A stretch of 64,000 nt of DNA from a virus (IMGVR_UViG_3300045988_173593:1-64000), one strand, 5' to 3'; counted from the stretch's first letter, positions 10,752 through 46,840 are shown. Notes: generated by a model from the letters alone, not told the origin. Numbers and translations: made by a program.

Positions 10752-10766
10752 CCCCGGATTGTCAAT
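10752..10766 (-). promoter_or_regulatory. CCGGATTGTCAAT motif copy 1 (minus orientation: TTGACAATCCGGGGTATATAAAAC)
   Basis: Intergenic, 40 nt upstream of the 10719 start. Confidence 0.55.
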
Positions 10767-10776
10767 CTGAGTCTTT

Positions 10777-11229
10777 TTATCCATGGTTGCTTTCATTCTT
10801 TTCTGCCTTAGTCCATCCGTCCCATCCGAAGAACTGGCAGTAGTTGCCCCAGCGGCGCGCCTTGTTCAGCCAGAGATAGCGGCGCGGGTCATACCAGCCG
10901 TAACGGTCTTTGACCAGCGTATAACAGTTCCGCTTGAAGCGTTCGTTGGAAGCGTCGAACTGCTCCCTGGTTCCGCCCTCGTGATATTCCACATCATGAA
11001 TCAGCGCGGCGGGCTCGAACAGTCCCGCACTTGCTGTGACGATCTCCCGAAGCCAGTCAGGGAACCGGTCGGGACCGATGCCGTTGTAGATTTTCCCGAT
11101 TTCCGTGATGCTGTATTTGTCAAGGATATGAACGTTCTCAAGCTTGAGATCATATGCCTTGCGGACAAGTTCAAGTGTTGCAGTGCTCATTTTCGTGTTT
11201 TTCCTTCCATTGTTTGATTCTCCGATCAC
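10777..11229 (-). CDS. hypothetical protein (possibly DUF1353-like). The true start may be M14 at 11190
   Basis: ORF. Confidence 0.45.
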   Translation of the reverse strand: MIGESNNGRKNTKMSTATLELVRKAYDLKLENVHILDKYSITEIGKIYNGIGPDRFPDWLREIVTASAGLFEPAALIHDVEYHEGGTREQFDASNERFKRNCYTLVKDRYGWYDPRRYLWLNKARRWGNYCQFFGWDGWTKAEKNESNHG

Positions 11230-11584
11230 CGAGCCATTCTGTAGCGTCCAGTTCAGCTTGCTTCGCAGGAGCCTCCAACTTCTTACGCCGGAATGTCTTC
11301 ATCAGGAGATATTTCACGAGCCCCATCACGTGCCGCTGGTAGGCGTGATAGAGCTCATGGATTACGCTCCCGAAGAACACCTCATCCGACCGGTCACCGG
11401 CTATTTTAAGCGTGTCCGTCAGGGCGCAATACATTGCTGTAACTACACCCTCAACGCCAAATTTCAGAGGCTCGTCTGGTATCTTCTGCCATGCAAACTC
11501 ATTCAGCCAGTCGGCTCGTCCGGAGTCAGCGTATTTCCAAGTGTTGCAGTATAGTTGAGTGTTCATGATTTTATTTACCTTCAC
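11171..11584 (-). CDS. hypothetical small protein with an HExxH motif (HELYHAYQRH)
   Basis: ORF. Possible metallopeptidase motif. Confidence 0.4.
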   Translation of the reverse strand: MKVNKIMNTQLYCNTWKYADSGRADWLNEFAWQKIPDEPLKFGVEGVVTAMYCALTDTLKIAGDRSDEVFFGSVIHELYHAYQRHVMGLVKYLLMKTFRRKKLEAPAKQAELDATEWLGDRRIKQWKEKHENEHCNT

Positions 11585-13392
11585 ATGTCATAGGTTTCCA
11601 GTTCAACAATGGTAGGATAGTTTGCAGCTACGGTAATGTCTGCCAACCTATGGTAGTAGTAGCTCTTGCTGTTCGAGAACGTGAACTCTTTCCACTCATA
11701 TCCAGTAGTCCATGTCAAGCCTGACGCAGTATACAAGTCTGTCCATGTGCTGCCGTCATCAGAGCCCTGAAGGATGAAAGAGGTGATAGCCTGCTGTGCG
11801 ATATCACCGGAAGCTGTACCCTGAAATCTGAGCTTCTGCACAAGCACTGGTTTCGTCTTATTTTGCCACTGAAGCCACCACGAAGAATTTGATGCTCCTG
11901 TCCATCCAGAAGAGCTACCTGTTACCCCGTCGAAGGCTTTCCACGGAGCAGAGTTAGTGCTGTAGAAACTGCTGGCACTGATTTCCCACTCGTCGGAGCT
12001 CTCGCTGGTCATGCCGGTAGGACTGGTCAGCGTTGGCGTGCCTGTGTAAAGCAATGACACAATCACCAATGCATCCGCGCTGTAGATTCCGCCGACGACC
12101 GGCGTGACGCTGGTATATGCCAGCCCCGCTGTGACATCGCTTTCGAAACTCCACGTTCCGGCTGTCGAGTCGAATACCGCCTTGTAGCCGCTCCATGTCT
12201 TCGCGGATACGTCCACGCTGGCGCACTTGTAATACTCCGCCGAGGTGCCGCCTGTGCTTTCGCCCTCATACGTTCCTGCGACATTGAAGATAGTTACGCC
12301 GCTCTTGATATTTGCAGCAGTCAAGTTCGTATCACCTGCGACGGTAACTTCTCCCTTGAGATACGAACCTTTAGAAATTACTTGTGCGTTTGCCGCCGGT
12401 GTAATCGTAAAAGCATTCAACGCGGTTCCGACTGTCAGTGTTTGCGCGCTCTTAACATAGCCCTTTGGCACTGTAACAACGTTATCAGACATTGAGGCTG
12501 TCACTGTGGGGATTGTGCCTGTTATCTTTTCGTCCTTAGCGTATGCCGTCTTGTCCTGTAAAATATCGCTGGCTGTCGCTGTCGCGTCGCTGGTGTCCGT
12601 TCCGGTGCTGATTTCGTTTACCGCATTGGCACACTGGTACAATGTCGAATCCTGCGCCAGACTTCCGCCTTTGGCATTGATCGCCGTCACGAGCGCATCA
12701 CGGGCGCCGTCCAGAGCCGAAAGCACAGTATCGAGCGAGCCCCCTGTAGTGCTGAACTCTTTGGATAGCTCTGTGATTTCGCTATCACTAAGAGCACGGT
12801 TGTAGACGCGGCAGGCGGCAAGGTAGCCGGTCATTTTTGTATCTCTCCCAATAGAACCTGAAGAAGTAAAGTTTGTGCCTAAAGCAATACCAGCCCCGAT
12901 TGTTGCGGAAAATGTCCGGCTTGCTGAAAGATTACCGTCTACATATAATTTTTGTGTTGTTCCGTCGTATGTGCACGCAATATGGTGCCAGCCATCTTTA
13001 ATATTAGTCGTAGCATCTATTAGGTTTTCATCAGACCCGTTTTTGTAGGTATATAATCTAGGATACCCATTATTTGTCATGACTTCCATGTTATGACTGT
13101 TAGTCCACGGTCCTAACGCAAACAAGCAGTCACCTGATTGGAAATAGGCATGGAATGAAAATGTGAAAGCATCTGCAACTTGAAAAGAGTTGTTATAAAG
13201 CGCACTGCTTCCATCAAAATAGGCACACTGCCTGCCTCCAAAAGTCTGAAACGTAACTGAACCTGAATTTGTGAGCGTATATGCACAATCTGCATTTTCA
13301 GCCAGTGGTGCATAAAATACAAGTCCATTTGTTGGTATTGCCATAAATAACCTCCTTAAGTTAATCTGTTGTGACTGTCCAACCACGATCAA
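11581..13392 (-). CDS. tail fibre / receptor-binding protein with an N-terminal LamG/concanavalin-like region
   Basis: N-terminus MAIPTNGLVFYAPL shared with the next fibre gene. Large beta-rich protein. Confidence 0.65.
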   Translation of the reverse strand: MIVVGQSQQINLRRLFMAIPTNGLVFYAPLAENADCAYTLTNSGSVTFQTFGGRQCAYFDGSSALYNNSFQVADAFTFSFHAYFQSGDCLFALGPWTNSHNMEVMTNNGYPRLYTYKNGSDENLIDATTNIKDGWHHIACTYDGTTQKLYVDGNLSASRTFSATIGAGIALGTNFTSSGSIGRDTKMTGYLAACRVYNRALSDSEITELSKEFSTTGGSLDTVLSALDGARDALVTAINAKGGSLAQDSTLYQCANAVNEISTGTDTSDATATASDILQDKTAYAKDEKITGTIPTVTASMSDNVVTVPKGYVKSAQTLTVGTALNAFTITPAANAQVISKGSYLKGEVTVAGDTNLTAANIKSGVTIFNVAGTYEGESTGGTSAEYYKCASVDVSAKTWSGYKAVFDSTAGTWSFESDVTAGLAYTSVTPVVGGIYSADALVIVSLLYTGTPTLTSPTGMTSESSDEWEISASSFYSTNSAPWKAFDGVTGSSSGWTGASNSSWWLQWQNKTKPVLVQKLRFQGTASGDIAQQAITSFILQGSDDGSTWTDLYTASGLTWTTGYEWKEFTFSNSKSYYYHRLADITVAANYPTIVELETYDM

Positions 13393-14146
13393 TGAGTGTC
13401 TGTTTATCTGTTAATCCCTGACCAGTTGGTGGTGCTGATGTTTCCTGATAGTTTATGTCCAAAGTTCCATTGGTTTTCGCATTCAAGACAAGCGATGCCA
13501 GTATATTATTCACAACATCAGAGGTAAATTTGTTAGAGTAGGCGGCAAGGTATTTTAATGCTGTGTTTTGCGCTATATTCAGCATAGTTAAACCGTTATT
13601 ATTGCACGCTAACGTCATTAGGTTTGCATTATTACTGATATCAAGAGCTGACAAAGCGTTCCCCTTACAATCCAGTGAAGTTAATGTGGGACATAAACTT
13701 ATGTCGATGGATGTTAATGTGCTAGTCGTACAATTTAATGCTGTAACTGCTCCTTGTATCGTTGTTGTTCCTGCTGACAAGGTAAATTCAGCAGGGAATT
13801 CCGTATAGGTCTGGGATGTAGCTCCATTTGTTACAATGACAGAGCCTGTTGCATTGATTGCTACTTTACTTTGTCCTTGTGATCCGCTTTCTGATACGAG
13901 TGTAATTATTTCATCTCCTGGTTCTCCGCCTCCTGTCGGCGTCCCGATGATCGCCATTGCGTCGGATTCAAATGCGGATGTGTCGCCGCCGGAACTTCCG
14001 GAACTATTCGCGAACGGGATGAAGAACTTATTGTTGACCAGCAAGCCTTTCTGATTCGCTGTCGGCTTGGAAGTGCTCAGAAAGAGCCCGTCGATCACAA
14101 CCCCGGTGCCACAAACAACTCCATCTGTCGGTATCGCCATAATCAA
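13361..14146 (-). CDS. tail fibre protein with leucine-rich repeats
   Basis: MAIPTDG N-terminus. LxxLxLxxN repeats (LTSLDCKGNALSALDISNNANLMTL). Confidence 0.6.
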   Translation of the reverse strand: MIMAIPTDGVVCGTGVVIDGLFLSTSKPTANQKGLLVNNKFFIPFANSSGSSGGDTSAFESDAMAIIGTPTGGGEPGDEIITLVSESGSQGQSKVAINATGSVIVTNGATSQTYTEFPAEFTLSAGTTTIQGAVTALNCTTSTLTSIDISLCPTLTSLDCKGNALSALDISNNANLMTLACNNNGLTMLNIAQNTALKYLAAYSNKFTSDVVNNILASLVLNAKTNGTLDINYQETSAPPTGQGLTDKQTLIDRGWTVTTD

Positions 14147-16422
14147 GCCTCCTCTGCTGGGATGTTGAAGTCATAGAGCACGGTCTGCGCGGAACCGCTA
14201 TAGACGCTGGAACCGTCCGCCGAAACCGTAACCGTCCGGATGGAAACGGTTTTCGTGGACTCGTCGCCGTCCGCCTGCGCAACCGCGAACTGCAACCCGG
14301 CGGCAAGCGAACCTTGCAGCGTCCACGCGCCGGAAGCCTTCAGATACAGATTCAGTGCGTTGGTGTCGAGATAAAAATCACCGTCCGTGCCGAGCTCATT
14401 TGACGGCGCACCTGTCCCGTTGAAGATCGTTTTTCCGTCCGTGCCTTCCGCCTTGACATTGGTATCGGTTTCGCCGATCATCCAGTGCTTTGTGTCCGGG
14501 TCAATGCTCGGAGTCAGCCCGTCGGAACCGTCCTGACCGTCCGTGCCATCCGTGCCGTTCGTAACCGTAAACGTTGACGTCGTTTCATCAGTATAAGTGA
14601 TGGTGTAGGTATCAACATTGCCGCTGGTTCCGGTTTTTTCAATGGATGCGATTCCACGGCCGTCCGAGCCGGTTTCTCCCTTCGCGACAAGGAGCGTCCA
14701 GTAGTCGTTCGAGACAGTCGCCGCACTCGCGGGCGGAGCGTTGCCGGAACCGGCAGCAGCGTTGATGTATCCCCAGAGCGAGCCGTTGTATTGAACGGCA
14801 TCCATTGCGGTGTCGGTCTTCTGGTAAGTCGAGGCGGCATCATACGCGCCGCGCACTGTCAGCCCGGTTCCGTCGGAGCCGCGATAGGCATTGAAAAAGT
14901 CGTCGAGGCTCTTTCCTTCGTTGCCCTCCTGTTCCAGCCAGAGCTGATACGCTGATTTGCCGTCCGCGCCGTCCGCGCCTTTCGGGATTCCAAAACTGAA
15001 ATGAAACTCTTTCTCCGTATTCTCGCCGGATGCGGTAATGCTTGCCGTGGCTTCGCTTCCCGCCGCCAAAGTTTCGGCTGTTGCATCCGGAGTCCCGAAA
15101 CCGGCGCTGGTTCCACTGGTTCCGTCGTTTCCGATATACTTCACCCAGACCGCACCGCTGAAATCTTCGGCGTCCGGACTTTCAACCTCTGTTTCGGAGT
15201 GTATTTCCGCGCGATATTTCAACGTGTCGGAAGGCGTGAGGCTGAACCCTGTCCCGCTTGCGTCGGAGGCATACGCCACATACATATAGGAACTGGAACC
15301 CGCCGTTCCCTGTTGCCCGAGAATCCGGATTGCACCGCTCCAGCTTCCGCCGTTGTCGTTCGATGTTCTCATATAGGCGTCGCCCCCGGCATATTCGTCA
15401 TGCCAGAGCGTCGAACCGTCCACGCTGTATTGCGTCTTGAGTTCCGGCGCGGGAGTTCCGTCTTCGCCCGCCGGTCCTCTGGGGATATACATGGCGTCCG
15501 ACCAGTCCGCTCCGACCACGGAAATTCTCTGCCGGTAATATTGGTCCGTCTCCTGATTTTGTATATCATGCCAATCAGTTGATCCGTCTGCGCTGAACTG
15601 GAATTCAAACTTGTTTCGGAGAAGCGACAATACCCATGACTGGCTTGCTATCCCCATTGCATTGGATTCCGGGACATCTGCCGACCTCTGAAAGGCGATT
15701 GGTTTGTTGATATAGATTCGGAACTGGAATCGTTTGATCGTTTCACCGTTGGAAAGAATCGCATGTTCCGCTGTAAGTTGCAGAGATTCGGTGTTTGTGA
15801 ACTCAAAGTTCTCCATGAGTTTGTCGGACATGGTCAGGAAATGAACTCCGAAGATACCTTCCGACTTTCTGGAATCATCCACATAGTTCACGGCGTTTGT
15901 TTCCGCGTCGTAATCGCCTTCCGCAAGAATCATAAGGCTTTCGGGAACCGAAACCGTCGCGCCTTCTTCAAACGCATAATCGGCGGTTTCCGCCGCGCCG
16001 AGTGTAAAGGCATAACCTTTTTCTATTGCGCTTCTTGAAACATAAGCGAAGCTCTGTTCTTCTCCGCCGGCGTTTCTGAGCACCAGGACACCCGTTTTCG
16101 GGATATACCGTTCTGTCGCGGAGACTTCTACGGAAATACTGGAAACGCTTCCACCGGATTCAATTGCGGAAAGATTCTTTCCCTCATAGCTGGAGATGAA
16201 ATTGTTGTCAATAGCAAAGAGTGACGATACCGACATGCTTTCAAAGCCGGTGTAAGGCGTCCATTCCGATGGCGTTTCGGAGGTTCCTCCGTCCGTCACA
16301 TAGTGAATCTCATAGTCTTCCGTGTTTTCCAGATAGGAAATCAGTTGATTCTGATTTGCAAATGGAGCACCTTTTGCATCATAAATGTCGCCGCTGGTAA
16401 AATCAATATAAATGATCTTCAT
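14143..16422 (-). CDS. large tail fibre / baseplate protein with collagen-like G-x-x stretches
   Basis: 759 aa with GPAGEDGTP and GTDGTDGQDGSDG segments. Preceded by motif copy 2. Confidence 0.65.
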   Translation of the reverse strand: MKIIYIDFTSGDIYDAKGAPFANQNQLISYLENTEDYEIHYVTDGGTSETPSEWTPYTGFESMSVSSLFAIDNNFISSYEGKNLSAIESGGSVSSISVEVSATERYIPKTGVLVLRNAGGEEQSFAYVSRSAIEKGYAFTLGAAETADYAFEEGATVSVPESLMILAEGDYDAETNAVNYVDDSRKSEGIFGVHFLTMSDKLMENFEFTNTESLQLTAEHAILSNGETIKRFQFRIYINKPIAFQRSADVPESNAMGIASQSWVLSLLRNKFEFQFSADGSTDWHDIQNQETDQYYRQRISVVGADWSDAMYIPRGPAGEDGTPAPELKTQYSVDGSTLWHDEYAGGDAYMRTSNDNGGSWSGAIRILGQQGTAGSSSYMYVAYASDASGTGFSLTPSDTLKYRAEIHSETEVESPDAEDFSGAVWVKYIGNDGTSGTSAGFGTPDATAETLAAGSEATASITASGENTEKEFHFSFGIPKGADGADGKSAYQLWLEQEGNEGKSLDDFFNAYRGSDGTGLTVRGAYDAASTYQKTDTAMDAVQYNGSLWGYINAAAGSGNAPPASAATVSNDYWTLLVAKGETGSDGRGIASIEKTGTSGNVDTYTITYTDETTSTFTVTNGTDGTDGQDGSDGLTPSIDPDTKHWMIGETDTNVKAEGTDGKTIFNGTGAPSNELGTDGDFYLDTNALNLYLKASGAWTLQGSLAAGLQFAVAQADGDESTKTVSIRTVTVSADGSSVYSGSAQTVLYDFNIPAEEA

Positions 16423-16449
16423 GCTATCTCCGTTCCGTGTTTTCCTTAT

Positions 16450-16463
16450 CCCGGATTGTCAAT
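16450..16463 (-). promoter_or_regulatory. CCGGATTGTCAAT motif copy 2
   Basis: 34 nt upstream of the ATG at 16422. Confidence 0.55.
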
Positions 16464-16476
16464 CACGAAGCGTTTT

Positions 16477-19167: not shown

Positions 19168-20244
19168 TTATGATTCTCCAAACGCTTTTTCAGGCATGGA
19201 AAGCGGTTTCCAGTCCAGCTTTTCATGAAAACCAAACAGTTTGTAACGAGTTTTCTGATACCCTGTCTTTTTATCAATCGGAGCCGGAAGCCCATTTTTA
19301 TCGAGCCATATGGGCTCCGTCAGACGTTCAATAGAGTTTTCATAATCTTCAAATTTATCTTTACCCCATTTATCCTTGAATCCTTCATAACTGTTCCATA
19401 CGACCTGTCCCGTTACCCCTCCAGGATATTTGCCTTTCTTGTTCTCATAAGCATAAATTGGAACGAATCCACCATTTTCACCTTTCATATAAATTGACAT
19501 ATCCCCGACAACTTTCCGCCATGCTCTTTTCGTCTTGACAAGTTTTCCCTCGTCATTTTCCAGCACATAAACCACCGGATCACCGATCAAACGAATAGAA
19601 ATATCCCAGTAACTCCATTTAACTTCGCCGTTTGTTTCACGCGTAACTTTCCTTTCGGCTTTCAGATTATCCATTTTCCACTGATTCGCAGTTAATTTCG
19701 TGCCTCCTACTACAATGCTTTGAGCATTGATGCTTTGGCGGTATGTCATAATCCACGCCGCCTTGAAATCTTCCAGACTGTAGGCAAGGTCTATCACTGG
19801 ATAGCTTACATCGCGTGATACAAGCAGCCGGCTTCCTGAACTGGACTGAATCGGATTCCCGTCAATATCCTGTTCCGGTGTTTCCGTGATGATGTCGCTG
19901 GTAAGGCTCCATGAAGTCAATCCCATTTCCCACGGCGGAGTATCTTCCGTGATTTCATTTCCGTTGACATCTGTCAACAGATTGGAAGAGTAAGAACATG
20001 TCACAATGACTTTTGCGCCGTCTCCCTCATTGGAAATACTCCGCTCTCCGGTCGCCTTGAACTGCGGATAGCTCGGATGCGCCGCATATTTGGACGGCAG
20101 ATTGCTGTCGCCTAAAACAAGATAAGGCTTGCGGATATCTTCTCCGCTGAGTTCATAAATGTATTGCCGTGTTGCGGTCTTGTTTCCGTCTTTGTCAACG
20201 GAAATATCGTTGTTGTCACTGACACCCCTGAAAGCGATTGCCAT
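19168..20244 (-). CDS. hypothetical tail/baseplate-region protein
   Basis: ORF. Confidence 0.5.
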   Translation of the reverse strand: MAIAFRGVSDNNDISVDKDGNKTATRQYIYELSGEDIRKPYLVLGDSNLPSKYAAHPSYPQFKATGERSISNEGDGAKVIVTCSYSSNLLTDVNGNEITEDTPPWEMGLTSWSLTSDIITETPEQDIDGNPIQSSSGSRLLVSRDVSYPVIDLAYSLEDFKAAWIMTYRQSINAQSIVVGGTKLTANQWKMDNLKAERKVTRETNGEVKWSYWDISIRLIGDPVVYVLENDEGKLVKTKRAWRKVVGDMSIYMKGENGGFVPIYAYENKKGKYPGGVTGQVVWNSYEGFKDKWGKDKFEDYENSIERLTEPIWLDKNGLPAPIDKKTGYQKTRYKLFGFHEKLDWKPLSMPEKAFGES

Positions 20245-20356
20245 ATTCTTGCCTCATATATAACGATGTTTTATAAAAAGAGGAAAAGCCATATCATGAC
20301 TACGGCTCTTGTCGGCGCAACAAAAAGGGTAAAAAAAACGCCTATCCTCTCCTAAC

Positions 20357-20372
20357 TGCAATTGTCAATTTA
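20357..20372 (-). promoter_or_regulatory. motif variant (CTGCAATTGTCAATTT) with upstream CCTATCCTC extension
   Basis: The stop codon of the Bro gene is embedded in it. Lies upstream of 20244. Confidence 0.45.
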
Positions 20373-20970: not shown

Positions 20971-21076
20971 TCTGATTTCTCCTGCCGTGATGTTTTGCTG
21001 TGGGAGGAAGATTTGCCACAGCAACGAGCAAATCTTGTCGGCGGCAAGGGGAGGGAGACCGCCTATCCTCACCTTA

Positions 21077-21093
21077 CCCCGGATTGTCAATTT
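21077..21093 (-). promoter_or_regulatory. CCGGATTGTCAAT motif copy (extended form with CCTATCCTC)
   Basis: Upstream of the Bro gene. Confidence 0.5.
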
Positions 21094-21124
21094 GCTTGAA
21101 AAACAGACGGCGGCGAGCTATAAT

Positions 21125-21145: not shown

Positions 21146-21595
21146 ATGAACATGAGAGAAACATTGATTGCCCTGCTGGGCGTTTTAACGGGAGTGGCAA
21201 CAGAAAGTGTTGCTTACTTTATAAAAAAGAGAGGTTATGATATGCAGGAACTGATTGATTCTTTGATTGAGGAGCTTGAAAAGCTGGAAGTCATGTATAC
21301 TCTGAAGCATCCGTCCGATCCGGATGATCCGGAAACGCGGATATGCCTTGCTTCGGTCAAACATAAATTCGCACGCCTGATACGCAGACGGCATTTTTTC
21401 TGGCATCGTGCGACAAACCGGAATCTGATTTTCTGTTATGAAAACTTCCTGAATGCTGACGGCGGAACAAAACCTTTTGAATATACCCATGGAAAGTTTG
21501 TCGATATTCCGGACAGTCGCAAGACCTGCTGCATGAAAGCTGATAAACTGGCTGTGCTTATCCGTATGCTGGAAAGAATCCACCCTGTTTTCTGA
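21146..21595 (+). CDS. hypothetical protein
   Basis: ORF. Confidence 0.45.
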   Translation: MNMRETLIALLGVLTGVATESVAYFIKKRGYDMQELIDSLIEELEKLEVMYTLKHPSDPDDPETRICLASVKHKFARLIRRRHFFWHRATNRNLIFCYENFLNADGGTKPFEYTHGKFVDIPDSRKTCCMKADKLAVLIRMLERIHPVF

Positions 21596-23707: not shown

Positions 23708-26614
23708 TCAAACAGCGACAAATCCCTCTTTAGGCATTTTGTCATAAATAGCTTTCAGGGTATTGACCATGACACCGGCTTGCTGTTTCAAATATTTTGT
23801 ATTTTCCTGCGTCTGTTTTGCATACTCATCTGCTGCACTCTTGTAATATCTCCGTGATTCAGCCTGTGCCGCCTGAGCGGTTCCGTATTCAACCGCCTGA
23901 AAAGCAGTCTGTAAACCATTTGCAAAATCCATAGAGTTTTTTACAAGGTTTTTTAATTCAGAATTTATATTGTGCATCTCTCCAAAGATACTTGCTTTTT
24001 TACCTTCATCGGTTGTTGATTCAAGTTGTTTCGAAAGTTCGTTGAATCTATTTTGAAGCATTTCTCTTTTCTTTGCAGAACTGTTCTCATACGAAAGTTG
24101 ATACTGAAAAAGCTGATTTTCCGTTGATTCCATATTTTTTCTGACATCTCTCAATTTATCCACTTTTGAGAAATAATCTTGCGTAAGTTTAAGATATTCA
24201 TCAGGATTTCTGAGTTTAAGATTTTCCACATCCGCTTTTTTTAACGCATCTTCTGCATTTTTTACCTGCAATTCATAAGCAGATATTTGGGTTGAATAAT
24301 CTTTACCTATCAAAGAACGTTCAACATAAATGTTTTTCAATCTTTCTTGATATTCTTTGATTCTGTTTTCATTTTCTTCAATCTTTTTCAGAAGCTCTAT
24401 TTTCTCTTTCAGAAGTTCATTTTGTTTTTTTACATTTCCTGCGGATTCTGCAAAACCATACGCTACATTGATAGCGCCAATTCTTCCTTTATCATGCTGT
24501 ATTTGCTCTTGGACAGAAAGTCTTGAATATCTGTATTGATTGACTGTTTCATTCAAGGCTTTGATATCTGCTGCTCTTTCTTGTTGTTCAGCATCTGCTT
24601 TCTCTTTTGCGGCTTTTTTTAGTTCAGCTTCTTCCTGTTCTTTTGCGGCTTTCTCAAGTGCTTTTGCTTCTCTCTCTTTTCTCATGTTTTCTACATTTGC
24701 TTCGTATTTTCTCTGTCGCTCTAAGTCACCATATTTTAAACCGTCAAGTGTTCCCAATGTTTCAATAAGAAAATCTGTTTCAGATAAATAGTTTATACCT
24801 CTATAAAGACCATAACCTATCAAACCTACCACTCCGGCTTTCGCTGCTAATTTAAGACCGGCAAGTTTACCAATACCACTAGCCGCGGTGACACTTGTAG
24901 CGGCTTTAAGTCTACTAGTCCATTCCTTTAATTTACCAATGTGACTTCCTATACCCTTGGTTACTTTTCCAATGCTCCCCATAACACCAATACCAATAAC
25001 TCCTGCAATACCTCCTAACCCTTTATCGAGTTTTTTAGTATTTTTTATAACTTTTCCTGTTGTTTTTCCAAGGTTGGAAAAAGTTTGTTTCAACCCCTTA
25101 TCACGCATATTAACGGGGATTGCTGTTCGGCTTCCTGCGATAGATTTTTCCAACTGTCTATACCTGTTTGCCTGATGCTGGTTGAAGCGTATCTTTGCAT
25201 ACTGCTCATTTGTTAGGGCATTCGCCAAATCGGAAAGCGTGGCATCTGCCACCGGAATACTTCTTCCTCTTTGAAGTGCCGCTGTCCGCTGGTTGATAAG
25301 CGCAATCTGCTGTGCAAGCGCGGCATTTTGCGCGTTCAGTGCTGTTGTGTTTGCACCGGTTGCAACTGTATCAGCCGCCGTTGCCGCCGTAGCCTTTGCC
25401 TGAATCGCAAGCTGGATTGTCTTTATGGTGTTGATTGCAGCCACGGCTCCTTTGACCGTGACATACCCCCCGGTAAGAAGCGTCAAATCCGCAATCAGCT
25501 TCTGCGTGCTTTCATCCATATTGTTGAATGAGGCGAGAAGCGGTGTAAGCGCACCGTTCAGAGTAAGGATGTTTTTTGCAGACTCTCCGACCTGAATACT
25601 GATCTTGTTGAAAGTATTCGGCAGGCTCGCAATCTGTTTATCCAGATTCTGTGCCTGTGTCGCAAATGCTTCTGCGGATGAACCTGCCTTGTCTTCGAAG
25701 ATTTCCATATTGTCGGCGAACATCTTGTATTGTCCTCCGGCAAGCGCGACTGCCGCCCTCATTCCCTCGATGGACGGCACAATTTGCGCTATGGCTTCGG
25801 TATTGGTTCCGACTTTCGAGTTGAGTTCCGCCATAACTCCGGAAAGCCCCTTCAACTTCAACGCAGCGGCATTCAGCTCGATTCCGTATTTCTGCGCGAC
25901 TTTTGTCGCTTCGTCTGTCGGCTTGATGAAAGCGGTAATCAGTGCGGAAAGCGAAGTGATAGCCCGTTCCGTCGGCATTGTCGTGGTAAGGGTTGCCGCC
26001 GCTGCGCCGAGTTCATCAAGTGACACTCCGGCATTTGCCGCCACTCCGGCAACAGAACCGATGGTATTTGCAAAAGAGCTTCCCGTTGTTTTTCCCTGTT
26101 TGACGACTTGAAAAAACATATCGGAAATTTCCGTCACATCGTTTGCGGTTTTTCCGTATGCGTTCATAATGGACGTGACGGCGTCCATGGTCGGAATCTG
26201 GTCTGCGACAATCGCCTGAGAGAGTTTTCCGACTTCTCCGGTAAACTTCACCAGTTCTTTTTCCGTCCCTCGGACGCCGGACGAATACGCAAAGTAAAGC
26301 GCACCGGCATTGTCTGCCGCGGAACCAAGACGGGAATCCAGTGAAAGCAGTTCACTTCTTACCTTGCTTAAATCAAGTTCTGAGGCAATGGATTTGATAT
26401 TGTAAAGCTCGCGGTTGAATGCCATGGAAGCGGCGGCAGCCCGCTTCATATAAGCAATGACGGACGCCGAACCGAACGCCAGCCCCAGGTTTTTCATAAC
26501 CTCTCCGGCAAGCGTGCTCGACTGATTCAATTTCTGATTGAACGCATTCAGACTGCTTTCTGCATTTCTGCTTTTGCATTCGATCGCTAACGTTACAATA
26601 TCTGCTTCAGCCAT
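23708..26614 (-). CDS. tail tape measure protein
   Basis: 968 aa. Coiled-coil and Gly-rich hydrophobic segments. Lies downstream of the G/GT pair. Confidence 0.85.
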   Translation of the reverse strand: MAEADIVTLAIECKSRNAESSLNAFNQKLNQSSTLAGEVMKNLGLAFGSASVIAYMKRAAAASMAFNRELYNIKSIASELDLSKVRSELLSLDSRLGSAADNAGALYFAYSSGVRGTEKELVKFTGEVGKLSQAIVADQIPTMDAVTSIMNAYGKTANDVTEISDMFFQVVKQGKTTGSSFANTIGSVAGVAANAGVSLDELGAAAATLTTTMPTERAITSLSALITAFIKPTDEATKVAQKYGIELNAAALKLKGLSGVMAELNSKVGTNTEAIAQIVPSIEGMRAAVALAGGQYKMFADNMEIFEDKAGSSAEAFATQAQNLDKQIASLPNTFNKISIQVGESAKNILTLNGALTPLLASFNNMDESTQKLIADLTLLTGGYVTVKGAVAAINTIKTIQLAIQAKATAATAADTVATGANTTALNAQNAALAQQIALINQRTAALQRGRSIPVADATLSDLANALTNEQYAKIRFNQHQANRYRQLEKSIAGSRTAIPVNMRDKGLKQTFSNLGKTTGKVIKNTKKLDKGLGGIAGVIGIGVMGSIGKVTKGIGSHIGKLKEWTSRLKAATSVTAASGIGKLAGLKLAAKAGVVGLIGYGLYRGINYLSETDFLIETLGTLDGLKYGDLERQRKYEANVENMRKEREAKALEKAAKEQEEAELKKAAKEKADAEQQERAADIKALNETVNQYRYSRLSVQEQIQHDKGRIGAINVAYGFAESAGNVKKQNELLKEKIELLKKIEENENRIKEYQERLKNIYVERSLIGKDYSTQISAYELQVKNAEDALKKADVENLKLRNPDEYLKLTQDYFSKVDKLRDVRKNMESTENQLFQYQLSYENSSAKKREMLQNRFNELSKQLESTTDEGKKASIFGEMHNINSELKNLVKNSMDFANGLQTAFQAVEYGTAQAAQAESRRYYKSAADEYAKQTQENTKYLKQQAGVMVNTLKAIYDKMPKEGFVAV

Positions 26615-26616
26615 TT

Positions 26617-28492: not shown

Positions 28493-28597
28493 ACCATTTT
28501 CTCTTTTCTCTGAGTTTTGTTAACTGAAGGAGGAAAGCGGCGCTCAGTCCTACACCGCCTTGTCAGACTGCCTTTCAGCAGACCTATCCTCCCTTAA

Positions 28598-28613
28598 CCC
28601 GGATTGTCAATTT
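28598..28613 (-). promoter_or_regulatory. CCGGATTGTCAAT motif copy (extended CCTATCCTC form)
   Basis: Upstream of 28492. Contains the stop codon of 28607..29044. Confidence 0.5.
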
Positions 28614-29915: not shown

Positions 29916-29939
29916 AAAAAGTAATCCTTTTTACAGTAA

Positions 29940-29954
29940 CCCGGATTGTCAATT
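29940..29954 (-). promoter_or_regulatory. CCGGATTGTCAAT motif copy
   Basis: 25 nt upstream of the ATG at 29915. Confidence 0.55.
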
Positions 29955-29990
29955 AAATCAGAGGAGATATATTATCCTAAGGAGGTTGCA

Positions 29991-31423: not shown

Positions 31424-31574
31424 AGTGTCCCTACCGTGTAAAAATATATACGCGTATCTGTCCTGCCTGCGGAAAAGAGTTTAGGCAGACGGGCATAGAT
31501 TCCATACTTCGGGGCAATCAACCTGCTCAGCGCAATGCCATAAAGCCTTACGTAGCGCCATAGCATCAAAGAGG

Positions 31575-34732: not shown

Positions 34733-35473
34733 TCAGTTTTGCTTTAACGGTAAATTGTTCAGCATAGCGAGGGAATCACCATTTGCTTTTGCCTCGTCAT
34801 ATGCTTTCTGTTTTGCCGCATCTGCGGAAACAGAATTTATGTTTCCGGGGTTTGATTTTCCCGGTGTTGAATTGACGGTGAAGTTGTAAAGGTCGGCTCT
34901 TGCCTGAATCCACTCCTTGACAGCCTTTCCCTTGTAAGGCGCAATATCGCCGACATCGTCAAGATCGAAATTGTCTTCAAAATCTTCCAGCATGGAATTG
35001 ATTTTATTTCGGTCATATTTTGCATCAAGAGATTCTACAATCTCTTTCAGCTTGCCTTTGACTTTGCTTGCCTTTTCCAGCTTGATCAGCTCATCCAGTC
35101 GCGTTTTCTGGCTTTCAAACTGCGTCTTGAAGGAATCACGTTCCTTTTCCGCAGTCCTCAGACGCTTCTTGTAGTCCAGAAGTTCTTCGTTTGCCTTTCC
35201 GCCGCCGTCTTTGAGAGTGTCGTATTCATCAATTTTTTCGCGCAACTCTTCCGGAGTGCCGAAATCCTCAAATGCCTTGAGTTTTTCTCTTGTGGCTTTG
35301 TGGTCTTTACGCTCCTTCTCAAGCGCGCCGTTGAGCCGCCTTACATCATCATCTGTTTTTGAGGACGGCATATCCTCAACGTCCAGATAATACGCGCCAT
35401 CGCGTTCCGTGTAAAACTCTCTCTGCGCTTCCGCTACTTCCTCGATGTTTCCGACTTTGAATTTCAATCCCAT
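34733..35473 (-). CDS. scaffolding protein
   Basis: Charged coiled-coil. Position. Confidence 0.65.
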   Translation of the reverse strand: MGLKFKVGNIEEVAEAQREFYTERDGAYYLDVEDMPSSKTDDDVRRLNGALEKERKDHKATREKLKAFEDFGTPEELREKIDEYDTLKDGGGKANEELLDYKKRLRTAEKERDSFKTQFESQKTRLDELIKLEKASKVKGKLKEIVESLDAKYDRNKINSMLEDFEDNFDLDDVGDIAPYKGKAVKEWIQARADLYNFTVNSTPGKSNPGNINSVSADAAKQKAYDEAKANGDSLAMLNNLPLKQN

Positions 35474-35526
35474 GATTGACTTCTCCTGTTATTTTTCTTG
35501 CAGGCTTCATGCCTGTTTTCATATAC

Positions 35527-35543
35527 CCCGGATTGTCAATTTG
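35527..35543 (-). promoter_or_regulatory. CCGGATTGTCAAT motif copy (TTGACAATCCGGGGTATATGAAAAC)
   Basis: Upstream of the scaffold gene. Confidence 0.55.
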
Positions 35544-36959: not shown

Positions 36960-38459
36960 TTATTCTTCTTCAGAATCATTGTTCTGCTCTTTTTTCGCAA
37001 AAGGATTCCCGTTCCCCTGAATAACCGGACTGTTCTGCATGGATTCCTCTCTTGCCTTTTCTTTTTCTTCCAGGAATTCCTCAATTGTCTTTTTTGGGTC
37101 GCCATAACCGTTTTCAAGCCAGATATTTCTCTTTTCTTCGGTTGTCAGGCTGTCGGTTCCATCTACCGCAACAAGCTCCTGAACAGACAGATTTGCCTCG
37201 GCAAAATCTTTACTCGGCGTGTAACGTGTTCCCAGAATCTCTTCTTCATCCACTCCAATCCACATTGCCGCATAACGCAATTGTTCTGTAATCGCATCCC
37301 CTGCGACAGAGTTGATGATCTGCAACGGCGAAGTATTGGAATCCTGAATCAGCTGAATCGCGACTCCTGACTGATTGCTTTTATTGTCGGAAAGACTCAA
37401 GGCATCGGACGAACAGAGCTCTTTCAGCTTTTCCACTTCCTGTGAAAGAATGGAAAGCGATTGTGCAGGAACTTCAAGGTATTGCGGCTGTGCCCCCTCT
37501 GGAAGCGCATTGAGCGCACCTGAGTTTACATACAACTCTTTCAGCAATGAAGTGATCTTATTATCATCTCCTTTTAGTCCAGTGATAAACAAGGGACTTT
37601 GCCCTGTCATGTAAAGAACCTGCCTGTAATCAGCATAAAGTTGATAAAGTGAAATTTCAGAATCTGCAATATTCAGAATTGGCGGTTCATCAATTGACGT
37701 TCCGGAAAGACTGGACACGCCGCACCAGGTAAACGGAATCCGATTCATCCTTTTTCCGTGATAATCCGGATACACAATGTTCCCTGAATTCGGTTCCAAT
37801 AGATCAAAATCAGGCCATGCGCCAAATTCAATTCCCGCCTGATAATATTCATTGTTCCGGTCGAGTCCGAGAACCCTCAGCTGCTTTTTTTCAACATCCT
37901 GCTTTGTCGCGGTGTCATATTCATATCCGGATTCGTCCAGAAGCACAAAACGGGCAAAAGACCTGCCATTCTCAGTATCAAATTTTGTCCGGATGAAATC
38001 TCTCGCACGGTAAGTCTGAATCACGAACGGCGCATCGTCTCTTCCGGTGGATTCCAGCAGACAGCAAATTAATCCATGTGACAGTTGCGCTTCATTCAGT
38101 CTGCGCTGTAGGGATTTCAGTCCGTCTCCGTATTGCGTTGCTCTGTCTTTCAGAAAATCAAGCTTTCCATTTTCCGGTAGGGATATGTCCGGCTCGCCCA
38201 TGTTGAGCATTCCCACATAACGGTTAAGCGCTTTCCGGGTGTAGTCGAAAAAGAGAGCCCGGAAAAGATACGCTTTGTAATCATCGTTGTTTTTCAGTTG
38301 CCACTTATCGGCAGGAAGATACTTAACAGTTTTTTCTTTGATCTTTTTTTGACCGCCAAGACAATCTTCCACTCGTTCACGGCAGGCTGCCAGTTTGTCA
38401 TATCCGTAATAGGCGAACTCCGCCGCCGTTGCAACTTCAGTTTTTCTTCCCGTTCCCAT
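36960..38459 (-). CDS. portal protein
   Basis: 499 aa between TerL and the gp7-like gene. Acidic C-terminus. Confidence 0.75.
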   Translation of the reverse strand: MGTGRKTEVATAAEFAYYGYDKLAACRERVEDCLGGQKKIKEKTVKYLPADKWQLKNNDDYKAYLFRALFFDYTRKALNRYVGMLNMGEPDISLPENGKLDFLKDRATQYGDGLKSLQRRLNEAQLSHGLICCLLESTGRDDAPFVIQTYRARDFIRTKFDTENGRSFARFVLLDESGYEYDTATKQDVEKKQLRVLGLDRNNEYYQAGIEFGAWPDFDLLEPNSGNIVYPDYHGKRMNRIPFTWCGVSSLSGTSIDEPPILNIADSEISLYQLYADYRQVLYMTGQSPLFITGLKGDDNKITSLLKELYVNSGALNALPEGAQPQYLEVPAQSLSILSQEVEKLKELCSSDALSLSDNKSNQSGVAIQLIQDSNTSPLQIINSVAGDAITEQLRYAAMWIGVDEEEILGTRYTPSKDFAEANLSVQELVAVDGTDSLTTEEKRNIWLENGYGDPKKTIEEFLEEKEKAREESMQNSPVIQGNGNPFAKKEQNNDSEEE

Positions 38460-38483
38460 TCATCTGCTCCTGGTTTTTACTAA

Positions 38484-38497
38484 CCCGGATTGTCAAT
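38484..38497 (-). promoter_or_regulatory. CCGGATTGTCAAT motif copy
   Basis: Between the TerL stop and the portal start. Confidence 0.55.
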
Positions 38498-38504
38498 CTT
38501 GCAG

Positions 38505-40865: not shown

Positions 40866-41399
40866 TCAGTTGTTTTCAATCGTAAGCGTGAAGCGGTCGG
40901 TTGTCTGAACTGAACCCGAAAGCTCTGTCTCCATCTTTTCGCTGTATCCGCGCCGTTTCCCTACGGTTTTCAGCAGAAAGAAGATTGCATCCTTGTCTCC
41001 TTCCCTGACAAGTTTCACCAGCTGGTTTTCGGCAAGGTCGATAATCGTTTCCTTCTGGCTTTGAAAGTAATCATTTGCTTCCGGAACCAAAGTCAGATAT
41101 TTTGCCGCTGTCATCCGGTCGATTCCGGCAAGCTGGGCAAGGGCTGTCATGATTCCGCCGCTTCTCTTGGCGCATTCGATGAATTTCTCTTTGCTGACTT
41201 TCATCCGAAAAGCACGCCCGCGCGATTGCTGATTTCCCGCAAGAAACCGACCATGTTCATCTCTCCACGGTTTCTGCTCTTCCGATCCTGTCGTTTCGGA
41301 TGTTGTCTTTTCTTTCTGAGAGTTCTTGACGGAAGAAGCCATCTTCTTCCCGGACGCAGTGGCATTTCTTTTCTGTTTGCTCATAACACATAATCCCAT
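40866..41399 (-). CDS. terS: terminase small subunit
   Basis: HTH-like GGIMTALAQLAGIDRMTAAKYL. Position before the methylase and TerL. Confidence 0.65.
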   Translation of the reverse strand: MGLCVMSKQKRNATASGKKMASSVKNSQKEKTTSETTGSEEQKPWRDEHGRFLAGNQQSRGRAFRMKVSKEKFIECAKRSGGIMTALAQLAGIDRMTAAKYLTLVPEANDYFQSQKETIIDLAENQLVKLVREGDKDAIFFLLKTVGKRRGYSEKMETELSGSVQTTDRFTLTIENN

Positions 41400-41480
41400 G
41401 ATTACAAGTTATCGCCGGAACGGATAAACAAAGCCTCATGCAGTGTTATTTCAACGTCTCCGGTTGTTTCTCTGCCATAT

Positions 41481-41495
41481 CCGGGATTGTCAATT
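41481..41495 (-). promoter_or_regulatory. CCGGGATTGTCAATT motif copy
   Basis: Upstream of TerS. Confidence 0.5.
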
Positions 41496-41606
41496 AAAAC
41501 ATCTTGCAATTGAATCAGTTCATGTGTTGCGTATTCATGGTACAATACATAAACATGTTTTTCTTTCCTGTAATCCCCCCTATAGTCCCCCCTTAATGGT
41601 TTTCAT

Positions 41607-41620
41607 AAATTGACAATCAG
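41607..41620 (+). promoter_or_regulatory. plus-orientation AAATTGACAATCAG motif before the + gene 41726
   Basis: Same TTGACAAT core, oriented with its downstream gene. Confidence 0.45.
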
Positions 41621-41725
41621 AGCTGTATGAGAATAGACGGCTTCCTCCTTCCGTTGACAAGGGCCGCTCGTGACTATGGCGGCCTTTTCTCCCATAGTCA
41701 ATTCATAGTTTGAGAAAAAAACATC

Positions 41726-42373
41726 ATGAAAGAACTTGTCAGGATTGAAGAATCCGTAATCGGAACTGAAAAACGGAAAACCGTAAACGCCCGCGACCTT
41801 TGGAAGGCTCTGGGAAGCAAACGCCAGTTTGGAAACTGGATTGAAGACCGTCTTTCCGAATTCATCGAAGAACAGGATTTCACCGTTAACAATTTTGTTA
41901 ACGGGCGCGATGCAAACGGAAGATTTACCGCGAAAGATTACCTTCTGACTCTCGACGTCGCCAAACATCTGGCAATGCTGGAACGCAACGATCAGGGACG
42001 CAGAATCCGACAGTATTTCATTGAGATCGAAAAAGCGTATCGGGAAGAGTCCCGCAAAGAATACGCCGATATCGCATTGCTTCTTGAGACAATCCGACGG
42101 CAGGAACGCGAGCTTTTCGCCGCTGAACTGGAGTTGAAGGAGTGGCGCAAACTTGCCCCGTCCTGCGAGCCGGGCGAAATTTCAAAAATCACGGGAATGC
42201 CGCGTAATTTCCTGCGCCGGGTATCAGCCACCAGCAAGCCGACGAAGCATTCTTATCACCGCTTGAAAATGGCTTTGGAGGAAGCGGAAAACATTCTCCC
42301 GGGCTTCTGCGAGGCTTTGGCATCCGGACGCATCCGGGCGGCTTCCGTTCCCGTGATTGAGTTCAAGCAATAA
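41726..42373 (+). CDS. AntA/AntB-type phage antirepressor
   Basis: VNARDLWKALGS...DYLLTLDVAKHLAM...RQYFIEIEKAY. Confidence 0.7.
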   Translation: MKELVRIEESVIGTEKRKTVNARDLWKALGSKRQFGNWIEDRLSEFIEEQDFTVNNFVNGRDANGRFTAKDYLLTLDVAKHLAMLERNDQGRRIRQYFIEIEKAYREESRKEYADIALLLETIRRQERELFAAELELKEWRKLAPSCEPGEISKITGMPRNFLRRVSATSKPTKHSYHRLKMALEEAENILPGFCEALASGRIRAASVPVIEFKQ

Positions 42374-46590: not shown

Positions 46591-46623
46591 AAGAACCTTA
46601 TATATAATTCAAACTTTAATAAC

Positions 46624-46645
46624 AAAAGAGCTTTAAAGCTCTTTT
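46624..46645. terminator. bidirectional terminator AAAAGAGCTTTAAAGCTCTTTT
   Basis: Perfect hairpin with flanking runs. Confidence 0.55.
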
Positions 46646-46656
46646 GTTAATTGATC

Positions 46657-46773
46657 TCAAAGCGTCAATGCATACATCACGCGTCCATATTCTCTCTCAC
46701 GTCTTGTCTGCCACGCTTTCCGGGCAGCTCTACGCCTTGCCGCTCTTTTTGCTTTTGCTTTTTCACTCGCCAT
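46657..46773 (-). CDS. 38-aa highly basic small protein (MASEKAKAKRAARRRAARKAWQ...)
   Basis: RBS CAGGAGATAATT. Below the ORF-track length cutoff. Confidence 0.3.
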   Translation of the reverse strand: MASEKAKAKRAARRRAARKAWQTRREREYGRVMYALTL

Positions 46774-46823
46774 AATTATCTCCTGTTTTTTGCCATCATC
46801 ACCATGATAACGGCTTATACTTA

Positions 46824-46840
46824 CCCAGGATTGTCAATTT
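46824..46840 (-). promoter_or_regulatory. CCAGGATTGTCAATTT motif copy
   Basis: Upstream of the small basic gene. Confidence 0.5.

Follow-up and report, generated by a model that had tools for sequence, protein, structure and literature searches.

A repeated intergenic box in a temperate phage genome as candidate recognition sequence of a late-promoter class, and a structured leader RNA ahead of antirepressor-type genes

The stretch IMGVR_UViG_3300045988_173593:1-64000 (64,000 nucleotides, referred to as the window; positions are counted from its first letter) is a temperate siphophage-like genome with nearly all lytic genes on the minus strand. Here, we describe a 19-base element with the consensus aAATTGACAATCCGGGnTA, the box, which is present in 11 copies ahead of late genes, a putative regulator that is the best candidate for its binder and a structured leader RNA that follows four of the copies. 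We regard it as a phage of a gut Firmicute. A Firmicute host is indicated by the XkdW domain, by strong Shine-Dalgarno (SD) sequences and by the TGnTATAAT form of the early promoters, and a 5.4-kb contig (L155) that is 95-97% identical to window positions 25389-30294 was binned in a metagenome-assembled genome of Oscillospiraceae. The genome is organized as follows, and its late region is interrupted by opposite-strand cassettes.

2285-2494, minus: cro-like gene, divergent from CI
2607-3623, plus: CI-like repressor
3977-5080, plus: integrase
about 63.4 to 47.9 kb, minus: replication and DNA-modification genes
46981-47694, minus: regulator
41.4 to 10.4 kb, minus: packaging, head, tail and lysis-side genes

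The box and its copies in the window

Box positions are numbered from the first T of TTGACA (nucleotide 1) and read on the strand of the downstream gene. When the whole 64 kb were scanned on both strands with a position-weight matrix spanning positions -3 to +17 (cut-off >12 bits), exactly 11 matches were obtained, of which only that at 41610 is on the plus strand and the other 10 are on the minus strand, and there were no weaker family members. Nine copies scored 28-33 bits and the two variants at 20368 and 41610 scored 22-23 bits. The copies and one degenerate site are listed below.

10750..10768, minus: box copy (AGATTGACAATCCGGGGTA), 31.7 bits, 46 nt ahead of gene 10378..10719, an unknown gene that opens the lysis-side cluster
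16447..16465, minus: box copy, 29.2 bits, 40 nt ahead of the 759-aa tail-fibre-like gene 14143..16422
20353..20371, minus: variant box (TTGACAATTGCAGTTA), 21.7 bits, holds the TGA stop of the Bro gene and is followed by the structured leader and gene 19168..20244
21075..21093, minus: box copy, 32.8 bits, heads the Bro-N antirepressor unit (ATG 20968) in the divergent region past the terminator 21646-21626
28595..28613, minus: box copy, 32.6 bits, holds the stop codon of gene 28607..29044 and heads the Ant (phrog_524) unit 27851..28492
29937..29955, minus: box copy, 37 nt ahead of gene 29457..29915 (head-tail region), directly after an opposite-strand moron cassette
35524..35542, minus: box copy, 32.8 bits, 66 nt ahead of the scaffold gene 34733..35473
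38481..38499, minus: box copy, 37 nt ahead of the portal gene 36960..38459
41478..41496, minus: box copy (TTGACAATCCCGGATA), 28.5 bits, 94 nt ahead of the putative small-terminase gene (terS) 40866..41399, at the start of the packaging/head operon
41607..41625, plus (the only such copy): variant box (TTGACAATCAGAGCTG) without CCGGG, 22.9 bits, followed by the structured leader and the AntA antirepressor gene 41726..42373
46822..46840, minus: first box copy (TTGACAATCCTGGGTA), 29.9 bits, directly downstream of the regulator gene
47790..47855, minus: degenerate site resembling the box (TTGACAAAATCCGC), followed by a hairpin and a strong intrinsic terminator, between the gene of the single-stranded DNA-binding protein (SSB) and the regulator gene

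The 13-mer CCGGATTGTCAAT occurs seven times without mismatch (plus-strand coordinates 10754, 16451, 21079, 28599, 29941, 35528, 38485) and with one mismatch at 41482 and 46826. When up to two mismatches were allowed, 15 matches were counted versus 2.46 expected, a number that 0 of 100 shuffled sequences reached. A preceding sequence-only reading of this DNA had counted at least 11 copies, and these data bear out that count. The 9-mer core ATTGTCAAT was found 13 times in the window as compared with 1.4 expected occurrences; those at 2035 and 60098 lie within coding sequence and lack the remainder of the box. All 11 copies contain the exact TTGACA, which is the canonical -35 hexamer of sigma-A/sigma-70. 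T15 is invariant in the window and A16 is present in 10 of the 11 copies, but overall position 16 is a purine, with G at three orthologous sites of close relatives. An A-rich patch occupies positions 21-23. Between -30 and -4, no conservation was detected among the 11 window sites and 24 sites of relatives.

Although only 10.8% of the window is non-coding, all 11 boxes fall into this fraction and each of them is co-oriented with the next gene, as the sequence-only reading had stated. The start codon lies 37 to 124 nt from the first T of TTGACA. Two plus-strand variants had been proposed as well; the one at 41607 was recovered (22.9 bits), but the one at 21125 consists only of ATTGACAA and fails the matrix. 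With respect to the direction of transcription, the 11 boxes are all located downstream of gene 46981..47694, the first of them 143 nt past its stop codon, and in the early region (47.9-64 kb) the matrix found no box. The TGA stop of the preceding gene was correctly described as embedded in two copies; it lies within TTGACAAT at 20365-20367 and 28607-28609 (boxes 20368 and 28610).

On the basis of what follows the box, two classes can be distinguished. Seven copies (10765, 16462, 29952, 35539, 38496, 41493, 46837) continue with an A-rich stretch and an SD sequence, and their start codon is located 37-94 nt after the first T. In the other four (20368, 21090 and 28610 on the minus strand, 41610 on the plus strand), GAGGATAGG appears after 12-13 nt and a conserved leader comes next. 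Three of these copies had been recognized before by their shared extension CCTATCCTC (= GAGGATAGG), and the fourth can now be added since it has GAGAATAG at 41629 (+).

Related phages and the candidate regulator

The relatives that we compared are metagenomic contigs recovered by exact-protein look-ups of portal and regulator homologues, and L155 was recovered by a DNA-pattern scan of GTDB genomes. Runs and assemblies that supplied contigs of relatives are SRR24653659, SRR25477890, SRR25533045, ERR11504329 and ERZ28614154. In IMG/VR, the regulator and the portal protein used as single queries yielded no relatives, and the exact 14-mer gave 118 single-copy matches, all compatible with chance and none in a relative. 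No close phage was found in INPHARED by megablast and tblastn, where the portal protein reached about 31% identity to Nonagvirus-type phages and the regulator had no match. Among the GTDB species genomes there was no portal relative, as far as the portal pattern scan reached.

In eight related metagenomic phages, a box is retained at the corresponding syntenic positions, which are those of terS, portal, scaffold, connector, major tail and tape measure. In the close relatives L126, L120, L119, L145 and L155, it is identical with drifting flanks and precedes portal, scaffold, connector, terS, Ant and small basic genes; the regulator of these phages, where present, is 75-98% identical. The portal box (38481..38499) has syntenic counterparts in L126, L120, L145, L121, L122, L124 and L139, and the scaffold box (35524..35542) in L126, L145, L121, L122, L124 and L139. 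Syntenic copies of box 29937..29955 are present in L126 at 12688 and in L155 at 1428, the terS box (41478..41496) has an identical copy in L120 at 2109, and box 46822..46840 is kept in L119 at 10185.

The distant relatives (L121, L122/L123, L124/L125, L139) have portal proteins that are about 60% identical and boxes that also stand before major tail and tape-measure genes. Their boxes keep TTGACAA, have G instead of A at -1 and continue with a phage-specific pyrimidine tract ending in T(A), as in TTGACAAnTTCCkTA of L121, TTGACAAnnnTyCyTTA of L139 and TTGACAAnnTTTTCT..TA of L124. Just upstream of the first box, L121, L122 and L124 encode a regulator homologue of 209-223 amino acids, which is 29-34% identical and has the same Cys motif and both helix-turn-helix motifs (HTHs). 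The L139 contig stops short of the regulator region and the comparison rests on the other three. Across the group, TTGACAA is constant and the next 6-9 bases vary with the regulator version of the phage. Since the distant relatives combine other box continuations with homologous but divergent regulators, box and regulator co-vary. A more distant family member, L140/L146, has gTTGACAAA...CATT sites before portal and other genes, and also canonical TTGACA-16-TATATT early promoters. Three near-identical canonical early promoters of L146, at 6388(-), 9917(-) and 16247(-), follow the pattern TTGACAAA(A)TG...TATATTAAAG and constitute a second repeated promoter family.

This synteny bears on the idea that the repeats are recombination junctions, which mainly let moron cassettes such as Ant and Bro move between phages and have no regulatory role. 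The boxes do bracket the Ant and Bro cassettes, two of them overlap the preceding stop codon, and the Ant cassette with its box is found at different places in relatives. However, boxes are also present before core genes (portal, scaffold, terS, tail fibre), they are syntenic across phages with about 60% protein identity, and in those phages their sequence co-evolved with the regulator. We therefore rate pure recombination junctions as the least probable of all explanations considered here. Recombination at the repeats may explain the mobility of the Ant cassette, but would be a consequence of their presence.

The minus-strand gene 46981..47694 encodes the candidate cognate regulator, a protein of 237 amino acids with a Cys-rich N-terminus (CPEC..CPDC..C) followed by HTH1 and HTH2. 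HTH2 was identified by Pfam as Sigma70_r4_2 (residues 167-211, 3.3e-10), with another HTH placed by Pfam at about residues 118-146, and HTH1 (residues 110-146) gave a weak match to region 4 of extracytoplasmic function sigma factors. HTH1 is the more conserved motif across the regulator family and HTH2 the more variable one. The HTH1 motif G(V/R)(T/S)RQA, GVTRQAIH in the window protein, resembles the TRERIRQ recognition helix of sigma-70 region 4.2. In profile searches of Pfam, NCBIfam and PDB, sigma region 2 was never matched by a family member, and only region 4 or LuxR-type HTHs were found; the NCBIfam and PDB matches fall on either HTH, depending on the family member. TIGR02937 aligned at positions 108-162 of 165 only and its 41.4 bits were below its cut-off of 42.9. 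An AlphaFold model of the regulator had a mean predicted local distance difference test score of 49.8 and was confident for HTH2 only. Membership in the RinA, ArpU, DUF1492 and LtrC families was searched for in Pfam, PHROGs and NCBIfam without a match, and only the domain-level similarity to Sigma70_r4 (LtrA-like) was found. Because the protein combines two region-4-like HTHs and a Cys-rich N-terminus but lacks region 2, its domain content indicates that it is not a sigma factor. When 1.84 billion representatives were scanned with a regulator profile (HMMER), 204 matches reached E<=1e-3 and 41 reached E<=1e-10. Near-full coverage of the profile was seen for roughly 25-30 of the matches listed, and 24 of these were aligned with the window protein. 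These data argue for a real, rare and unannotated regulator family.

The regulator gene follows the SSB and replication genes and precedes terS, to which it is directly adjacent in L121, L124 and L120. Because it is located directly upstream of the first box copy, because its homologues occupy the same place in every relative for which this region is available and because one half of the box changes with the regulator, its product is supported as best candidate binder of the box. The sequence-only reading had proposed this protein as a sigma region-4-like binder; position and co-variation sustain the choice of the protein, but the sigma label has to be dropped in the absence of region 2. Its other suggestion, a multi-copy operator, is unlikely for the CI-like repressor. 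The repeat TTGTTCTTAATCACA flanks the cro-like gene at 2279-2294 and 2521-2536 in the CI/cro intergenic region, beside TGnTATAAT promoters, and no box occurs in the early region. These repeats are likely to be the CI operators and unrelated to the box, and with operators of a different kind CI was ruled out as box binder. A phage RNA polymerase was ruled out as box reader as well, since there is no candidate open reading frame (ORF) in the window.

Two observations concern the surroundings of the regulator gene. The degenerate site upstream of it (47790..47855) is kept in L119 at 9182 and, as TTGACAATTCAGG, in L120 at 1008; together with the hairpin and the terminator it resembles an attenuator or an autoregulatory entry point for regulator expression. 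Downstream, box 46822..46840 heads a self-contained unit consisting of a 5'-untranslated region (5'UTR), a 38-aa basic ORF (46657..46773) and a terminator hairpin (46621..46648). This 5'UTR carries a conserved 9-codon mini-ORF (ATGGTGATGATGGCAAAAAACAGGAGATAA, 46777-46806(-); in L119 at about 10215-10245), which overlaps the SD of the main ORF.

Promoter geometry and the leader RNA

A consensus scan detected no -10 hexamer (TAnnnT) 16-18 bp past TTGACA at any of the 11 sites, which agrees with the sequence-only reading. Similarly, no -10-like information was present at positions 24-29 in 35 sites (11 of the window and 24 of relatives). SD sequences start about 20-26 nt after TTGACA at at least five sites, and the shortest distances from box to ATG in the group are 35-38 nt (five sites), with the SD always in between. 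TATAAT-bearing host-type promoters of the same phage are located in the 2580s and at 21096, 30316 and 42943, and their spacing is 16-17 bp. Since these canonical promoters carry TATAAT and the boxes never do, the box sites are probably promoters of a distinct class. The alternative of a -35 upstream of a GACAAT '-10' was ruled out because there is no information upstream of position -4.

Several boxes stand at places that require a promoter. The terS gene follows the terminator 42425-42407 and the convergent AntA gene, Bro follows the terminator 21646-21626 and a divergent plus-strand gene, and AntA is solitary on the plus strand. The site at 29952 comes after an opposite-strand cassette, the small basic ORF unit after 46837 ends in its own terminator, and the box before the major tail gene of L121 directly adjoins a terminator.

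Two other readings have to be weighed at this point. According to the first, a phage DNA-binding protein sits on oriented asymmetric boxes and blocks elongating RNA polymerase, so that the late genes are silenced as by stoperators. The asymmetric core is of comparable size, with a conserved block of about 19 bp as compared with a 13-mer (PMC9283540), it is related to TGTCAA/TTGACA, and the candidate binder has two DNA-binding domains. There are also more than 10 copies in short intergenic sites that sometimes overlap stop codons, strictly co-oriented with transcription. However, at terS, Bro and AntA transcription must begin and not stop, neither the early promoters nor the early region carry a site, the immunity repressor is CI-like with different operators, and the candidate binder is encoded in the lytic transcription unit behind a terminator, outside the immunity cassette. 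Thus, we consider a roadblock quite improbable.

The second reading places the signal at the level of RNA or elongation. The box would be transcribed from upstream promoters and would serve as processing or translation signal, or, like ops or a Q-binding element at which polymerase pauses in a sigma-dependent manner, as loading site of an antiterminator. Sigma region 4 binds TTGACT close to a -10-like pause element at lambda PR', and the strict sense orientation of the box, its position just upstream of the SD and its occurrence inside long operons would fit such a role. However, for several boxes (AntA, Bro and terS, the last of which stands behind a terminator) no transcript that would reach them from upstream on their strand is apparent, the box co-varies with a protein of the DNA-binding HTH type, and RNA structure starts after the box and not inside it, the box itself being devoid of conserved pairing. 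We attribute a similarly low probability to this signal as to the roadblock.

The RNA structure in question is the leader of the four class 2 copies.

20986..21091, minus: leader copy 1, Bro gene; three-way junction and pseudoknot, 5' strand of helix P1 (GAGGA) identical to the CCTATCCTC extension
20262..20369, minus: leader copy 2, before gene 19168..20244 (unknown, 358 aa); pseudoknot not evident in this copy
28512..28611, minus: leader copy 3, before the Ant gene 27851..28492
41609..41709, plus: leader copy 4, before AntA; P1 is GAGAA/UUCUC, a compensatory change

For these four copies, RNAalifold predicted a three-way junction with P1 (GAGGA/UCCUC), the P2 hairpin, GACAAG and a second hairpin, P3. 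Single-sequence folds agree with this structure and extend P1 back to nt 16-18, and the onset of this first helix lies at nt 16-21 of the numbering used here. With the four copies as input, a covariance model recovered leaders in three relatives independently: L139 at 3514-3607(-) (E 7e-5), L145 at 3853-3957(-) (E 2e-7) and L155 at 2770-2869(+) (E 2.5e-16). The L155 leader is near-identical to the Ant leader 28512..28611 and differs from it by compensatory changes in P2. The loop of P3 can form a pseudoknot with the 7 nt following P1. When the model with pseudoknot was applied to five sequences, 91% of the cells paired and 12 of 23 pairs were compensatory, which none of 500 shuffles reached; the sample is small, the P1-P3 alignment was fitted to the model and the pseudoknot lies outside that model. 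Sliding the pseudoknot partners lowered the pairing to about 50%. P1 itself has one compensatory pair, GAGAA/UUCUC in the AntA-type copies. The 3' strand of P1, UUCCUCC, resembles an anti-SD sequence. In Rfam 15, no leader match at gathering score was obtained for the window, and the best match in E-value mode had 19.6 bits against a threshold of 60. The leader pattern combined with TTGACAA gave 11 matches in IMG/VR, all due to chance. Judged from its predicted fold, the leader is a new structured RNA ahead of antirepressor-type genes (Bro-N, Ant, AntA) and a candidate cis-regulator of antirepressor expression.

The leader also bears on the start site. Because there is no -10, because the SD follows about 20 nt past the box, because the covarying P1 begins at nt 16-21 and because the conserved block ends with T15-R16, we infer a transcription start at T15-R16, about nt 15-17 after the first T, and not at +35. 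The box would then be a single-block promoter, with TTGACAA at about -15 to -9. In the geometry of a canonical activator-dependent promoter, TTGACAA would be a true -35 bound by region 4 of the host sigma-A, the regulator on CCGGGnTA in the spacer would replace the missing -10 and transcription would start at about nt 35. In favour of this geometry, TTGACA matches the -35 consensus exactly, and TTGACAA also opens the canonical promoters of this phage. Moreover, a terS promoter is the site of action of LtrA-type sigma70_r4 activators in Gram-positive phages (PMC3753634). This geometry is disfavoured because a +35 start would lie at or past the SD or the ATG in at least five sites (d = 35-38 nt) and would cut off the covarying P1 and half of P2. 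In addition, the 35 sites have no -10-like information at 24-29 and their block ends at T15-R16 instead. Taken together, a canonical -35 is unlikely, but it appears less remote than roadblock, RNA signal or recombination junction. The sequence-only proposal of a -35-type element is thus disfavoured by the missing -10-like sequence, by the position of the SD and by the covarying helix.

Several neighbouring features should be mentioned. A canonical plus-strand promoter (TTGAAA-17-TATAAT, 21096-21124) precedes the unknown 149-aa gene 21146..21595, and between its -10 and the ribosome-binding site of this gene there is a ATTGACAAAT half-box. This half-box could be an operator by which the late regulator shuts gene 21146..21595 off, or could be there by chance. 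Hairpins with a CAUGA(G/A)G-type loop occur in the 5'UTRs of terS (41433-41441(-)) and scaffold (35504-35512(-)) and ahead of the regulator gene (47829-47837(-)), and they are also present in syntenic 5'UTRs of L121, L122, L139 and L126. As a second motif, the 9-mer GCATGAGGC from the loops of the terS and scaffold hairpins was not significantly enriched (21 occurrences vs 14 expected, 4 of 100 shuffles). A perfect canonical promoter (TTGACA-16-TATAAT, 30316-30343(+)) drives a small opposite-strand cassette (ORFs 30414-31883) within the late head to head-tail region. Promoter and cassette are kept in the close relatives L126 (12329(-)) and L155 (1074(-)), and the cassette is probably a moron expressed in the lysogen.

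Genes of the DNA-modification type are dense in the window (45147-46590(-), 50586-51944(-), 52960-55461(-), 39940-40848(-)) and comprise two 3'-phosphoadenosine-5'-phosphosulfate (PAPS)-reductase-like genes, a ParB-like gene, a gene for a fusion of SNF2 helicase and N6/N4 methylase and, in the interval from terS to the large-terminase gene terL, a Dam-like methylase. The largest window ORFs encode 968 aa (23708..26614, regarded as tape measure only because of its size and position), the 833-aa SNF2 helicase-methylase and the 759-aa tail-fibre-like protein. The large terminase of several relatives has 842-854 aa with a LAGLIDADG (intein-type) insertion, and the window copy (480 aa) is uninterrupted. 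Insertion-bearing genes are located at 3931-6477 in L120, 5900-8464 in L122, 344-2890 and 4660-6385 in L126, 5605-8133 in L139 and 1643-4336 in L138. L126 has Hint/HNH insertions in a MuF-like gene, and in L138 a DNA methylase is interrupted by Hint. No tRNA or tmRNA genes were found in the window.

Proposed mechanism and comparison with known systems

We consider it probable, although by no means certain, that the box is the recognition sequence of a phage-specific, regulator-dependent class of late promoters. Early transcription would run from about 63 kb to the terminator at 47818-47790, and the regulator gene would come next. The regulator would bind the asymmetric box of 17-19 bp as a monomer, with one HTH reading the group-wide TTGACAA and the other one the phage-specific CCGGGnTA half; the different conservation of the two motifs suggests that HTH1 might read TTGACAA and HTH2 the specific half. 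The bound regulator would bring the host RNA polymerase to 9-11 sites, from which transcription would begin again or be strengthened; the genes served would be the small basic gene, terS, portal, scaffold, connector, Ant, Bro, the tail fibre and the lysis-side cluster. Initiation at T15-R16 would yield 5'UTRs of 20-110 nt that retain the SD. The sequence-only interpretation is partly supported, and its main idea, a class of promoters or operators that is specific to the phage and linked to the region-4-like protein, holds in outline.

Several points weigh against this mechanism. Binding, activation and start site, and hence every functional step of the late-promoter model, are what we infer from sequence patterns. 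We know of no established structural precedent for a sigma-70-type holoenzyme that starts 15 nt past a TTGACA box, and the phage's canonical promoters, which also have TTGACAA as -35, keep the ordinary -35 reading alive. The P1 argument comes from seven leader copies, which possibly share ancestry with their boxes, and from one compensatory P1 pair only. In the terS/AntA divergent region, a possible extended -10 (TGgTACAAT, 41538-41546 (+)) and a promoter-like site with 9 of 12 matches (TTGACT-17-CATAGT, 41701-41673 (-)) could supply upstream transcripts. The variants 20368 and 41610 have no CCGGG and may be independent of the regulator. The proposed division of reading between HTH1 and HTH2 is weakened because the HTH2 recognition helix of P0002, the regulator of L119, differs, yet the single box known there is unchanged.

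A more far-reaching version is doubtful at present, but ranks above each of the rival explanations. In this version, a Cys-rich double region-4 protein would redirect the host RNA polymerase in a new way, with TTGACAA at about -15 and a phage-specific discriminator-like segment, and would create compact single-block promoters with neither -10 nor -35 at normal spacing. Such an undescribed form of sigma appropriation or replacement would couple its regulon to a new leader RNA that controls antirepressor genes. In any case, the late-promoter class would constitute a complete regulon, which comprises a single regulator gene and eleven sites and for which the relatives provide natural specificity variants. 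If the proposed start is right, a TTGACA-type element can function at a distance from the start that is about 20 bp shorter than in textbook promoters, which would be of interest to RNA polymerase research. The box may also be used as practical marker for late-operon annotation and for the design of orthogonal promoter/activator pairs for Firmicutes.

To our knowledge, there has been almost no study of late-gene control in temperate phages of gut Clostridia. The MotA boxes of T4 and the promoters of P1 Lpa, Mu C and P2 Ogr, a zinc-binding protein, are systems in which one phage factor serves many dispersed promoters and a factor-specific box replaces the -35. Those promoters keep a recognizable sigma-70 -10 at a fixed distance from the box, in contrast to the sites described here, which have no detectable -10 and a presumed start only about 15 nt from the box. 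The promoters of T7-like single-subunit RNA polymerases are contiguous blocks of about 17-20 bp that end at the start, are repeated and contain a phage-specific sub-region. The box similarly forms one conserved block that ends at the putative start and stands before many genes, but this phage has no RNA polymerase gene. The start-associated sequences (SAS) of cluster K mycobacteriophages are asymmetric 13-bp elements in sense orientation, which are repeated before many genes, are located 3-8 bp from the start codon and include the SD. In contrast, our box is found 37-124 nt from the start codon and the SD is separate and downstream.

The stoperators of cluster A mycobacteriophages (L5 gp71, TipsytheTRex repressor) are bound by the immunity repressor and stop transcription (PMC9283540). 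They are asymmetric 13-mers, of which more than 20 copies are found in the early as well as the late regions and also at the early promoter, and they are read by a monomer with two DNA-binding domains (PMC9283540). Like them, the boxes are asymmetric, intergenic and co-oriented sites with a core related to TGTCAA/TTGACA, here as a block of about 19 bp with a 13-base core in 11 copies. Unlike them, they coexist with a CI-like immunity that uses other operators, and they occur in the late region only, at places that need a start of transcription.

The Ltr superfamily comprises the late-operon activators of Gram-positive phages, namely RinA, ArpU, LtrA (Sigma70_r4 family), LtrB and LtrC (PMC3753634, PMC3152322). 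These small proteins act on one repeat region and one promoter upstream of terS, recognize their cognate sites in a phage-specific manner and are needed to start the packaging, morphogenesis and lysis genes (PMC3753634, PMC3152322). Our candidate regulator shares with them, and with the 'positive control sigma-like factor' Xpf of PBSX, the resemblance to sigma region 4. Gene position, domain type and cognate specificity (here deduced from sequence) are also alike, and a box stands 94 nt ahead of terS. In contrast, the regulators described here are larger (210-250 aa) and combine a Cys-rich N-terminus with two region-4-like HTHs in tandem, a single asymmetric box in 11 copies dispersed over 36 kb takes the place of the one repeat region, and the proposed promoter geometry is different. 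The LtrA (Sigma70_r4) class of late activators is the closest described kind, and we classify the system neither as a sigma factor system nor as a stoperator system but as a putative late-promoter regulon with a dedicated activator.

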